Assembly: GCA_951406725.2 (NCBI GenBank)
Contig: OX597814.1
Span: forward strand, 213,466,001 to 213,530,000
DNA length: 64,000 bases
Origin: Octopus vulgaris
Taxonomy: Eukaryota
Reading direction: 5' to 3'
The stretch's first letter is position 1, and the number at the start of each line of letters is the position of its first letter. The position numbers were made by a program, and so were the translations under genes. Shown one piece after another: positions 10,262-14,637 of the stretch. The notes beneath the pieces are model-generated. The model made no database searches. It was not told where the DNA came from and saw nothing but the letters and a program-made list of their open reading frames with translations.

Positions 10262-10783
10262 GTGCATAACTGGTACTTATTTAATCGACCCCGAAAGGAT
10301 GAAAGGCAAAGTCGACCTCGACGAAATTTGAACCCAGAACATAGCGGCAGACGAAATACCCATTTCTTTATTACCTACAAGGGGCTAAACACAGAGGGGA
10401 CAAACAAGGACAGACAAAGGTATTAAATCGATTACATCGACTCCAGTGTGTAACTGGTACTTAATTTATCGACCCCGAAAGGATGAAGGGCAAAGTCGAC
10501 CTCGGCGGAATTTGAACCCAGAACATAGCGGCAGACGAAATACCTATTTCTATTTCTTTATTACCCATTAGGGGCTAAACACAGAGGGGACAAACAAGGA
10601 CAGATATAGGTATTAAATCGATTACATCGACCCCAGTGCGTAACTGGTACTTAATTTATCGACTCCGAAAGGATGAAAGGCAAAGTCGACCTCGGCGGAA
10701 TTTGAACCCAGAACATAGCGGTAGACGAAATACCGCTAAGCATTTCGCCCGGCGTGCTAACGATTCTGCCAGCTCGCTGCCTT
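10262..10783 (-). mobile_element. SINE family A concatemer (one head, three bodies)
   Basis: Junctions at 10360/10361 and 10544/10545; periods 184 and 190 bp. Confidence 0.9.
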
Positions 10784-11160
10784 AGGAACCGCGAACATTA
10801 ACATCGGGCAGTAATGGGAAACGTTTCTCCGAGGGTAGATACAAAGGTTCTATATTATAGAGCCAGTGTCGTGTTGCAGGGAGCTATTTAGCCTAACCCC
10901 AGTGTCATTTAGGTTCTTTGATATTTTTAGAATTGTTCGAAGCAAAATTTGTTGGTTTTCGTAGCCGCATGTAGCGTCGGGTAGATCAGGAGGTGTCAGG
11001 TTCAAACCAGAGTTCTAACTTGAGACATTACAACAGAACGGATATTCATGTACACTCTAGTAAAAGTGAGCAACTTTTCTTTCCTCTTCTTCCTTCTCCT
11101 CCACCTTCCCCTCTCTCTCTCTTTCTCTCTCTCACTATATATATCTGATATATATATATA

Positions 11161-11450
11161 TATCACCGTGACCGACCAGGCTATCAGATGTTGCTACACA
11201 TCGGTGGTCACAATGCACTGCGCATTGTCTTAGCCTTCAAATGACGCCACCCCGATGACTAAGCGAGCAGGCCAACAGAAGAAAGAGTGAGAGAAAGTTG
11301 TAGCGAAAGAGTACAGCAGGGACCGCCACCACCCACTGCCGAAGCCTTGTGGAACTTTAAGTGTTTTCGCTCAATAAACATTCACAACGCTCGGTCTGGG
11401 AATCGAAACCGCGAGTCCGCTGCCCTAACCACTGGGCCATTGCGCCTCCA
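11161..11450 (-). mobile_element. SINE family B with RTE-like tail
   Basis: Homologous to 7175-7472; tail ends ggtcggtcacggtgata against (TA)n. Confidence 0.85.
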
Positions 11451-11499
11451 CACACACACACACACACACACACACACACACATATATATATATATATAT

Positions 11500-11745
11500 G
11501 CGCCCTTTTAAAGCCTGGCCAGTCTCATGGGCCCGGTTTCCCGGTTTCTATGGCGTATGTGTTCCCCAACTGGACGGGACGCCAGTCCATCGCAGCATTA
11601 CTCATTTTTGCCAGCTGAGTGAACTGGAGCAACGTGAAATGAAGTGTTTCGCTCAAGAACACAACACGTCGCCCGGTTCAGGAATCGAAACCACAATCTT
11701 ATGATCATGATGCTGACACTCTAACCACTAAGCCATGCGCCTCCA
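11500..11745 (-). mobile_element. tRNA-derived SINE family D
   Basis: Minus head ggaggcgcatggcttagtggttagag...ggtttcgattcc, then cttgagcgaaacacttcatttcacgttgctccagttcactcagct. Confidence 0.75.
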
Positions 11746-11812
11746 CACACACATACACACACACACACACACACACACACACACATTTCTCATCTCTCAT
11801 TCTCTGTGTATA

Positions 11813-12450
11813 CAGGGGATGAACAAAATAATGGAAACATTTAGCATCATAGCATCATAATTTTGAAATATCCATAAAACCGTCAACAGCTTGTTTATTT
11901 TGATGCTTTTTGATTTATTATTAGTGTTGCTTAATATGTTCTTTTGAGATATCTTCAGAAAAAGGGTAATTAAAATTCATTAAAATGACAAATCTATCGG
12001 ACTTTCAGAGAGGTCAAATTGTTGGTGCTTGTATGGCAGGAGCTAGCGTAACAAAACCAGCCGAAATGTTTAGTGTATAAAGAAGTACTGTCTCGAATGT
12101 AATGACAGCCTTTGAGAAAGAGAGAACGACTTCCTCCTCGAAGCAAAACTCCGGAAGAAAACCAAAACTTTCAGATTGGGACCGCCGGGCTCTTACGCGA
12201 ATTTTTAGAGATTATCACAAAAGTACAGCTCCTAAAATTACTGCAGAGCATAATGACCACCTTGAGAACACAGTTTCCACAAAAAATGTTCGCCGAGAGC
12301 TGCACAAAGCCGGATTTCACGGGAGGGCTACAATCAGAAAACCACTACTTTCAAAAACAAACGGTCCCTAGAGCAGAGGAAGAATGTTATTTTCTCGGAC
12401 GAGCCATTCTTTACCTTACTTCTGATCACCGACCGAGTATACGTGTAAGA
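11813..12450 (+). pseudogene. Tc1-like transposon, 5' part, disabled transposase
   Basis: TA then caggggatgaacaaaataatggaaaca; ATG 11985 MTNLSDFQRGQIVGA...(stop)...SGRKPKLSDWDRR...VRRELHKAGFHGR...RKPLLS; then VIFSDE after an internal deletion. Confidence 0.85.
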
Positions 12451-12572
12451 AAGCTAGCGAATGTGTACTGCAACAAAGACAAAAAAAACGAGAATACGGT
12501 ACACAGTTACAAATACAAACAACCCGAACATAACAACAGGTGTCTTTCGACTGAGAACGAATCAAATTGAGT

Positions 12573-13472
12573 GATATATATATATATATATATATATATA
12601 TATATATATATAATATATATATATATACATAATATATATATATATATACATAATATATATATATATACATAATCATATGTATATATATATACATAATATA
12701 TATATATACATAATATATATAATATATATATATATGTATATATATATATACATAATATATATATATATATATATATATATATATATACATATATATATAT
12801 ATATATATATATATATACATAATATATATATATATACATAATATATATATATATACATAATATATATATATACATAATAATATATATATATATATATAAA
12901 AAAAAAAAACAAAAAAATATATATATATATACACACACACATATATACATATATAATACATATATATATAAAAAAAAAAAAAAAAAAAAAACATATATAT
13001 ATATATATATATATATATATATATATATATATATATATATATATATACATATATATATATATATATATATAATATATATATATATATATATATATATATA
13101 TATATATATATATATATATATATATATATATATATATATATATATACATATATATATAGTATACATATATATATATATATATATATATATATATATATAT
13201 ATATATATACATATATATATATATATATATATATAATATATATATACATATATATATATATATATATATATATATATATATATATATATATATATATATA
13301 TATATATATATATAATAAATATATATATATATATATATATATATATAATAAATATATATATAATATATATATATATAATATATATATATATATATATATA
13401 TATATATATAATATATATATATATATATATATATATATATATATATATATATATATATATATATATATATAC
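12573..13472. repeat. Long imperfect (TA)n tract
   Basis: About 900 bp of TA/TACA with short A runs. Confidence 0.95.
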
Positions 13473-13567
13473 ATGGGAATTTTATGACCAGCTTCACTAG
13501 TAATTTATTGGAGGTTTCGTTGGAGTTTTATTTGTTCCCTGTTCTTACTTGATGTTAACATTTTCAG

Positions 13568-13855
13568 GTCGATTTTTAAACATCAATTTCTCAGCTTATG
13601 TGAACGATTGGAGAGCAGCATTGCTCTACATCGTCCCCTTTTGGCCACTCCAATATCACCCCAGTTTTCTTCAAGGCCCTCCTCCTGGATCTTACATCTG
13701 CCCTCGTGGGTGCGGTACCACCAACTTTGGGAACAATAGATCCAAAGGAAGTTAAACTGCCAAATGGTGCTAAATCGGGTGTCGAATTATGTCTACACCC
13801 AAACATGGCTAAGGTGGGATATGAACTCATAAGGCAAAGAGCCGAAGCAAATACG
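13568..13855 (+). other. Candidate exon of an unidentified transcript
   Basis: ttttcag|G acceptor and ACG|gtaagg donor around GC-elevated sequence not repeated in the window; every frame has a stop, but one frame is open over the last ~84 codons with aaacATGG at 13805. Confidence 0.25.
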
Positions 13856-14057
13856 GTAAGGCCTCCGGTTCCAATTTCATGCCTTTAAACCACTCTAATC
13901 TTTTGTAATGGTACATTTCATCGAATCCTAAAGAAAGAAAAGAAAGGTTGCCCTCATGAGGATTTGAACTCAAAGCGCAGAAATTCGTAACAAAAACTAC
14001 AGTGCATTTTATTCGATGCTCTAACAACTCTACATACTTAAGGGTAAATCTATTAAT

Positions 14058-14637
14058 GGTTTCAAATTTTGCGACAAGTACAGCAATTATGGGGAAGAAG
14101 ATGAGTCGATTACATCGACCTCCGTGCTCAAGTGATAGTTATTTTATCGACTCCTAAATGATGAAAGGTAAAGTCGACCTCGGCAGAATTTGAATTCAGA
14201 ACGTAGCAACAGACGAAATACCTATTTCTTTACTACCCACAAGGGGCTAAACACAGAGGGGACAAACAAGGACAGACAAAAGGATTAAGTCGATTACATC
14301 GACCCCAGTGCGTAACTGGTACTTAATTTATCGACCCAGAAAGGATAAAAGGCAAAGTCGACCTCGGCGGAATTTGAACTCAGAACGTAGCAACGGACGA
14401 AATACCTATTTCTCTACTACCCACAAAGGGCTAAGCACAGAGGGGACTAACAAGGACATACAAAAGTATTAAGTCGATTACATCGACCTCAGTGCGTAAC
14501 TGGTACTTAATTTATCAACCCTGAAAGGATGAAAGGCAAAGTCGACCTCGGCGGAATTTGAACTCAGAACGTAGCGACAGACGAAATACCACTAAGCATT
14601 TCGTCCAATACGTTAACAATTCTGTCAGCTTGCCGCT
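14058..14637 (-). mobile_element. SINE family A concatemer (one head, three bodies)
   Basis: Junctions gaaatacc|tatttct at 14222/14223 and 14406/14407; period 184 bp; the terminal unit carries a different tail. Confidence 0.9.

Follow-up and report, generated by a model that had tools for sequence, protein, structure and literature searches.

In the genome of Octopus vulgaris, the tail of a short interspersed element (SINE) is joined over and over to the same internal position of the next copy, and we conclude that this tail-to-GGTATTT junction is a property of the whole family. We think it probable, with some room for doubt, that the SINE inserts into its own relatives at a fixed internal GGTATT, that the doubles are re-inserted whole, and that longer chains come from local duplication. 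The evidence comes from a window of 64,000 nucleotides (the whole stretch analyzed, C1:213466001-213530000), in which the family lies on the minus strand, and from searches of the 2.8 Gb genome. Each element has 49 bases up to the junction site, followed by a 184-bp unit that runs from GGTATTTCG to the tail end AAAGAAATA. Full-length copies measure 233-237 bp and exact tail matches number 137,803 genome-wide, so that the element is short, interspersed, and high-copy in the sense of SINEBase. Head and body are common to the whole family, and there are at least four tail types, labeled A, B, C, and D.

Two arrays in the window carry the junction. Array 1 (10262..10784, minus strand) consists of one head (10735..10784, minus strand; the A-box-like part upstream of the junction site, with differences at 0 of 29 non-CpG sites), two A-tailed bodies (190 bp and 184 bp), and a third body that is partial, at 99 bp; its GGTATT words start at plus-strand positions 10734, 10544, and 10360. 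Array 2 (14053..14641, minus strand) has a diverged head, two 184-bp A-tailed units, and an older last body with a B-type tail, and GGTATT starts at 14590, 14406, and 14222, giving units of 184 and 184 bp. At all four joins, each on the minus strand, an A tail meets the identical GGTATTTCG: in array 1 at 10536..10559 (first G 10544), where the tail carries a GAAATA slip, and at 10352..10369 (first G 10360), where it ends ...AAATG; in array 2 at 14398..14415 (first G 14406) and at 14214..14231 (first G 14222), the latter leading into the B-tailed last body. A sequence-only reading of the window had proposed one shared junction and a 184-bp unit; the junction is borne out, and the unit length holds for three units, the fourth, in array 1, owing its 190 bp to the GAAATA slip. 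Array 2 lies between identical 11-bp target-site duplications (TSDs), at 14042..14052 on its 3' side and 14642..14652 on its 5' side. The same reading remarked that a solo full-length A-tailed copy of 237 bp (8396..8632, minus strand) is also followed by GGTATT. That word opens a 13-bp TSD found in identical form after the tail (8383..8395, GGTATT start on the SINE strand) and before the head (8633..8645), and was therefore target DNA.

The scale of the phenomenon became clear from the whole genome. A 21-mer spanning the junction has 38,496 exact matches on both strands, and its reversed control has none, which rules out chance. Tabulating the sequence after exact tails, a check suggested together with the original observation, showed that 42,036 of the 137,803 continue into GGTATTTYR and 57,959 into GGTAT; the junctions are not scattered over positions within the element, and the matches look dispersed among the places listed, as judged informally. 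In 400 kb of evenly spaced stretches, an A tail continues into a body in 16 of 32 cases, and in 800 kb of evenly spaced sequence 12 dimers and 5 trimers together account for 17 of the 37 A-first elements. Sampled arrays (n = 101) comprise 65 dimers, 27 trimers, and 9 longer ones. Tails B, C, and D are internal in 0 of 128 arrays, under a chaining rule that demanded an A tail upstream. The tail variant A2 is enriched before junctions, where variant alleles account for 12-18 of 101, against 28-35 of about 83 in monomers. A TSD score of at least 8 was reached by 28 of 52 monomers with an A tail and by 18 of 40 arrays ending in A, compared with 53 of 978 in a shuffled null.

Direct evidence that the family targets itself comes from loci with two heads. 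The junction site followed by a new head has 236 matches, compared with 33 when that head follows a control body word. We fetched 30 such loci, among which L153 and L154 are a single locus and L159 and L160 near duplicates: 29 lie in family copies (19 after an older head and 10 after an A tail) and 1 in unique DNA. The site sequence is repeated after the tail of the new copy, mostly over 10-19 bp and over less in 4 of 22 parsed loci. Of 16 informative loci, 13 carry the same target-specific, non-consensus letters on either side of the new copy (null expectation 0.43; p=0.002; 7 of 29 two-headed loci could not be parsed by the script). Outer heads at these loci are as old as random monomers (divergence 0.120 versus 0.116), and the last-tail mix of the targets agrees with the genomic pool (p=0.35). 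Some new copies have thus inserted into older family copies at exactly GGTATT, which directly demonstrates the site-specific insertion that had been offered as one possible mechanism. At L153/L154, three consecutive heads (a 65-bp head-plus-TSD repeat) stand ahead of a four-body array; here a TSD-bounded head segment was duplicated or hit twice.

What steers the choice of site? The first TSD base is G in 23 of 34 A-tailed elements, often as part of GGTAT; in C- and D-tailed elements it is A or T in 17 of 17 and G in 0 of 17. A C tail is joined to the main site in at most 30 matches, ruling out a site that is hot for every tail. A second junction class joins a tail ending ...AAGAA to a head at AGAAWCGTTAG (2,743 exact matches), and the places listed mostly carry the other tail variant; examples are L008, L056, and L062, and some members of the class build tandems of ~217 bp. 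In two elements the sequence continues beyond the tail into the next unit, by 29 nt in L027 and 26 nt in L030, before the TSD begins, implying that the template ran past the tail. These patterns suggest that the RNA end likely pairs with the nicked target and thereby steers the site. The self-complementarity of the TATTTC and GAAATA ends, pointed out at the start, is real and places the junction site within a predicted 13-bp hairpin, but the predicted tail-site duplex is weak (-3.7 kcal/mol). This complementarity may explain the founding event; thereafter it is unneeded.

The inserting enzyme likely comes from a young L1/Tx1-like long interspersed element (LINE) that shares the tail. A-tail matches without a SINE body numbered six, and two of these led to a LINE 3' end. 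Its second open reading frame (ORF2) encodes 1126 amino acids with endonuclease (PF03372), reverse transcriptase (RT; PF00078), and zf-RVT (PF13966) domains above cut-off, and among 131 scored copies identity over 300 amino acids is 99-100%; an example is L223:1452-4832 (minus strand). The LINE 3' end shares ~45 terminal bases with tail A and shows weaker similarity to B-D. Each of the 19 printed 3' ends, some of them from overlapping loci, runs into ATATC, and 17 continue into TATCTA repeats; (TATC)n precedes 5'-truncated copies. By its domains and flanks the LINE appears to resemble microsatellite-targeting Tx1 elements, in a layout general to L1; the comparison is with the behavior described in the accessible part of one report (PMC4494074). 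Because this LINE sits in (TATC)n, a contribution of its endonuclease to the SINE's choice of site is possible. The LINE copies L211-L226 are young, lie in (TATC)n microsatellites, and are often tandem. The window also holds a lone 27-bp A-tail fragment (20317-20343, minus strand), with neither SINE body nor LINE 3' untranslated region upstream.

One-headed dimers have a different history from the two-headed loci for the most part. Their two bodies are no more alike than units of different arrays (divergence 0.099 in AA dimers versus 0.095). Across the junction of 65 dimers, 2 of 110 linkage tests fell below p=0.02, and no excess of sister arrays was found among those sampled. Unlike units, lack of linkage, and lack of sisters together argue that neither local duplication nor one master made these dimers. 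A fixed dimeric family of the Alu type, with linked halves, is likewise rejected, by the absence of linkage and of a sister excess and by the four types of last tail. A minority of one-headed dimers did form in place: first and last body have rare variants in common in 5 of 57, and L140 has four such variants across 66 bases. The heads of one-headed arrays are young (divergence 0.048-0.068), and outer TSDs are young too, with 5 mismatches in 150 positions for C/D-ended arrays, 21 in 232 for B/C/D monomers, and 14 in 344 for A monomers; most one-headed dimers were therefore likely inserted whole inside one TSD. Immediately after the site, the first body is A-type in 21 of 26 C-ended arrays, and the head bears a B/D-type letter in 4 of 12 B/D-ended arrays, compared with 23 of 28 B/D monomers. 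Non-A last bodies diverge more than first bodies (0.073 versus 0.035); paired comparison of first and last bodies gave no significant difference in A-, B-, C-, or D-ended arrays. As the source of whole dimers we prefer a putative read-through dimer RNA, because self-inserted loci and extended templates are both observed; template switching also fits.

Longer arrays point to stepwise local DNA duplication after insertion, which would have built many of them and is often the source of arrays with at least three bodies, a route that the sequence-only reading did not list. Divergence within inner unit pairs is below that of random pairs (0.048 versus 0.095). Variants common to the first and second units sit distal to those of the last two units (p=0.002), a pattern predicted when the duplicated segment extends across the junction and crossover takes place within the body. 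Neighboring units of L137 are 99% identical, and their best match elsewhere is 91% (among 40 scored of 1,876 candidates). Most of the 10 arrays with at least four bodies show nested sharing between adjacent units, with 0-11 differences among inner units; L128 and L125 show it between neighbors, and in two arrays inner units are identical. Under a strict test, sharing of rare variants is clear in only 9 of 31 arrays with at least three bodies, which indicates that many trimers come instead from successive additions of independent units. Other SINE tandems that keep their heads occur at C11:81438138-81438778 (six 121-bp units) and C3:20297199-20297465 (three 117-bp units), joined at CCTTT-AAGG.

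The mechanism we propose would begin with an A2 tail that carries a 3' extension copying the family's internal sequence, giving an RNA that would run into GGUAUU and likely primes on matching DNA. Copies then insert at sites resembling GGTAT where the target is unique DNA and precisely at GGTATT where it is an older member, with an ordinary TSD of 10-19 bp, as is seen at the loci themselves. The end of the complementary DNA (cDNA) would pair with the homologous target, the second head would be lost, and exactly 184 bp would be added, an outcome seen in part and suggested by array 2. Next, an inner promoter could yield head-unit-body dimer RNAs from many sources, inserted whole within one TSD; this is the likely main origin of one-headed dimers. 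Finally, the two bodies would act as direct repeats at which unequal exchange adds units, as several arrays illustrate. A defined mechanism, as opposed to random duplication, had been anticipated, and the data support one; self-insertion in place covers only part of the arrays.

Several observations weigh against this scheme. Exact two-headed matches are few, 236 as against 42,036 junctions, and two-headed elements make up 2-3 of the 17 multimers in the evenly spaced sample. B and D last bodies account for 13 of 90 in one-headed and 12 of 24 in two-headed arrays (p=0.0005); the young A and C last bodies need selection of sources with working tails, or fit template switching equally. Head divergence is uncorrelated with that of first or last body (n=87), and a source-daughter pair was not found among 128 arrays. 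Most arrays were sampled through the exact junction word on C1, which favors young copies. In these data the preference of the partner endonuclease and RNA pairing are confounded, and the 3' extension and the dimer transcripts are deduced from DNA. Finally, no TSD was found around array 1.

These difficulties give some force to the alternative that most one-headed dimers arise by RT template switching, in which synthesis would start on any active family RNA, pause at the GGUAUU hairpin, and move over to an A2 RNA at its 3' end, with self-insertion as a side product. Young heads, young outer TSDs, and young last bodies enriched in A and C types would all follow, as would the lack of linkage and sister arrays and the location of the site in a predicted 13-bp hairpin; template jumping is reported for R2 in the accessible part of one study (PMC11371274). 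Nevertheless, template switching leaves unexplained the two-headed loci with mirrored TSD letters, the dimers with private variants in both first and last body, and the elements that end inside a second unit, and it fits poorly with the greater divergence of non-A last bodies (0.073 versus 0.035 for first bodies). We consider it unlikely, if still a serious contender. The more specific suggestion of iterative template jumping along one RNA is a misfit, AA dimer units being as unlike as random pairs. Somewhat less probable again is the idea that nearly all junctions form in place, by A2 insertion followed by homology-directed repair that usually swaps the old head for the new, more commonly in young, similar targets. 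It accommodates the two-headed loci, dimers such as L140 and L104, and array 2, and seamless annealed 5' joins predominate in the R2 system as far as the available text describes it (PMC11371274). Against it stand the first bodies of C-ended arrays, which are A-type directly beyond the site in 21 of 26 cases, the scarcity of B/D-type letters in B/D-ended array heads (4 of 12, compared with 23 of 28 for B/D monomers), and outer TSDs as young as those of A insertions.

It strikes us as very improbable that the arrays stem from a processed or circular RNA or from a single dimeric ancestor. An exact junction with complementary tail end and site would suit either, and a few arrays share variants through every unit. 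However, 117 of 128 arrays start with a head, which a circle would lack; dimer units are unrelated, there are four last-tail types and no linkage, where a single dimeric master had been named as the outcome that would overturn a defined mechanism; Rfam yielded no ribozyme match, and the tail-site duplex reaches only -3.7 kcal/mol. Retrozymes are circular-RNA repeats with a self-cleaving ribozyme in each unit, found as uniform tandems without heads; the missing ribozyme match and the heads of the same 117 arrays exclude one here. That the arrays are assembly artefacts or random tandem duplications is scarcely credible. Tandem repeats are prone to mis-assembly and two inner unit pairs are identical, yet window units differ at 6% of sites, the 38,496 identical junctions lie on both strands, and whole arrays are bounded by TSDs, and on these grounds we reject this explanation for the window arrays. 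Self-insertion followed by whole-dimer re-insertion and local duplication thus remains the reading we favor.

How do the two window arrays fit? Their units differ at 11 of 184 sites within array 1 and 12 of 184 within array 2, as against 16-21 per 184 between arrays or relative to the solo copy, the within- versus between-array comparison that had been called for. The private variants noticed in array 1 hold up: a rare word occurs in all three bodies, and these 3 belong to a total of 37 exact matches in the genome; the array-1 haplotype is not reproduced at 26 other printed loci. Array 1 would fit local duplication or conversion, its 3' end having been lost later. In array 2, differences from the A consensus fall at 5 of 29 non-CpG sites in the head and 6 of 65 in the last body, and at 0 and 1 of 65 in the inner units. 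These divergences agree with the earlier suggestion of younger units inside an older copy, and the diverged B-type head suggests the class of in-place addition, but this is a minority pattern among one-headed arrays. DNA contigs of two other organisms span both outer ends of array 2; such contigs gave no unit number or pre-insertion allele, because the array joints are overwhelmed by family contigs, which run to hundreds of thousands. The flank of array 1 at 10789-11080 has almost no contig cover from other samples, which proves nothing. Beside the 3' end of array 1, the stretch 9933-10254 is matched in three other runs by one 322-base contig, and all three contigs stop at 10254, 8 bases from the truncated end.

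Older, diverged monomers and fragments of the family, 75-84% identical to the solo copy, lie in the window at 1475-1607, 21254-21562, 24730-24897, 46784-46944, 47740-47884, and 60483-60579. A 900-bp (AT)n-rich microsatellite (12574-13471) separates the two arrays; a decayed Tc1/mariner-like transposase fragment, judged by eye only, lies at ~11820-12440, and a tandem repeat of 141-bp period (2.4 copies, 100% identity) at 23541-23879.

The putative tRNA-like character of the head rests on words that resemble the consensus A and B boxes. The B-box-like word falls within the repeated unit, and the tRNA-like region extends beyond the junction. A predicted fold pairs positions 3-7 with 86-90, resembling an acceptor stem. 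ARAGORN found 0 tRNA genes, and Rfam gave no match to tRNA or to any ribozyme family. TSDs and a 3' end in common with the partner LINE are as expected of a SINE, and presumably there is some resemblance to the MetaSINE superfamily. In the accessible descriptions, SINEBase asks for elements under 1 kb, interspersed, in at least 100 copies, and with a head at least 60% identical to a tRNA (PMC3531059), and MetaSINEs are defined by a 66-bp Meta domain after the tRNA region (PMC4824008).

The family offers a case, countable across a genome, of RNA 3'-end homology guiding the target choice of a retrotransposon, in which sister subfamilies with the same LINE-derived tail choose different sites matching their own ends. 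It also gives a concrete route by which SINEs may swap tails and partner LINEs and by which SINE-derived satellites may begin. Because about one third of the subfamily's tails do not stand for separate insertions, copy counts, age landscapes, and automated libraries are all distorted. More speculatively, and with more doubt than confidence, we suggest that this could be a natural 'homing' SINE: one subfamily would once have acquired a stretch of its own interior as its 3' end, and its RNA could from then on guide it to relatives numbering in the hundreds of thousands. It would add exact 184-bp units by homology-completed insertion, swap tails between subfamilies that use different LINEs, and seed satellites at tens of thousands of loci, with positive feedback, each dimer giving more self-targeting RNA.

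Our comparison with known systems draws on the accessible parts of the papers cited. We found no account of this fixed junction, or of any octopus SINE that targets itself; the family may be described in subscription papers (among them a 1994 octopus SINE paper), figures, or supplements. In a survey of octopus repeats, almost none of the 900 SINE families listed as recently active is classified, and the accessible text mentions no such junction (PMC13282606); in the portion of the SPLASH preprint at hand, no relevant passage was found. The closest parallel is the TSD1-(SINE)n-TSD1 arrays of the blood clam S. broughtonii, also built from a mollusc tRNA-type SINE with a full first head, later units truncated at one position of the head, and a single TSD, where expansion is ascribed to unequal recombination (PMC11481361). 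There, however, inner units are truncated at the tail as well and ~3% of copies are tandem-like, whereas here tails are complete and ~30% are followed by the junction; moreover, last bodies here come from four subfamilies and self-insertion is demonstrated, whereas the accessible text of the clam account has no self-targeting rule (PMC11481361). The squamate sSat satellites and Dip/B1 multimers are similar in having tandem part-SINE repeats, a leading and a trailing SINE, and local homogenization; sSats differ in running to hundreds of units with varied boundaries, where ours are short, dispersed, and joined at one junction fixed at retrotransposition (PMC10702118). The sSat definition asks for at least four middle monomers; the window arrays have one middle unit, and four occur in 1 of 101 sampled arrays. 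Such satellites are further characterized by lying in subtelomeric regions or heterochromatin, and the junction matches listed here look dispersed.

Other systems resemble this one in how a site is chosen. In the crocodilian pair SINEU and Tx1-Mar, the SINE strongly prefers a site in another repeat, is mobilized by a Tx1 LINE, and forms tandems by sequential insertion; its target, however, is a DNA transposon and the preference is ascribed to the endonuclease (PMC4494074). Here the target is the element's own family, each sister subfamily chooses a site that corresponds to its own end, and the LINE is itself found in (TATC)n. In a further reported system, a repeat at the RNA 3' end correlates with the first TSD base, a one-base effect on dispersed targets, and self-targeting was not seen in what is accessible of that report. 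With R2 protein, annealing of the 3' tail and of the cDNA to the target gives mostly seamless joins and a fraction that duplicate the shared part, outcomes that parallel our one-headed and two-headed elements; that system is engineered around a site-specific ribosomal DNA endonuclease, whereas ours is a natural, non-autonomous element with a dispersed target (PMC11371274). SINE multimers, then, were already known; what stands out in the octopus is an unusually clear rule by which a SINE targets itself.

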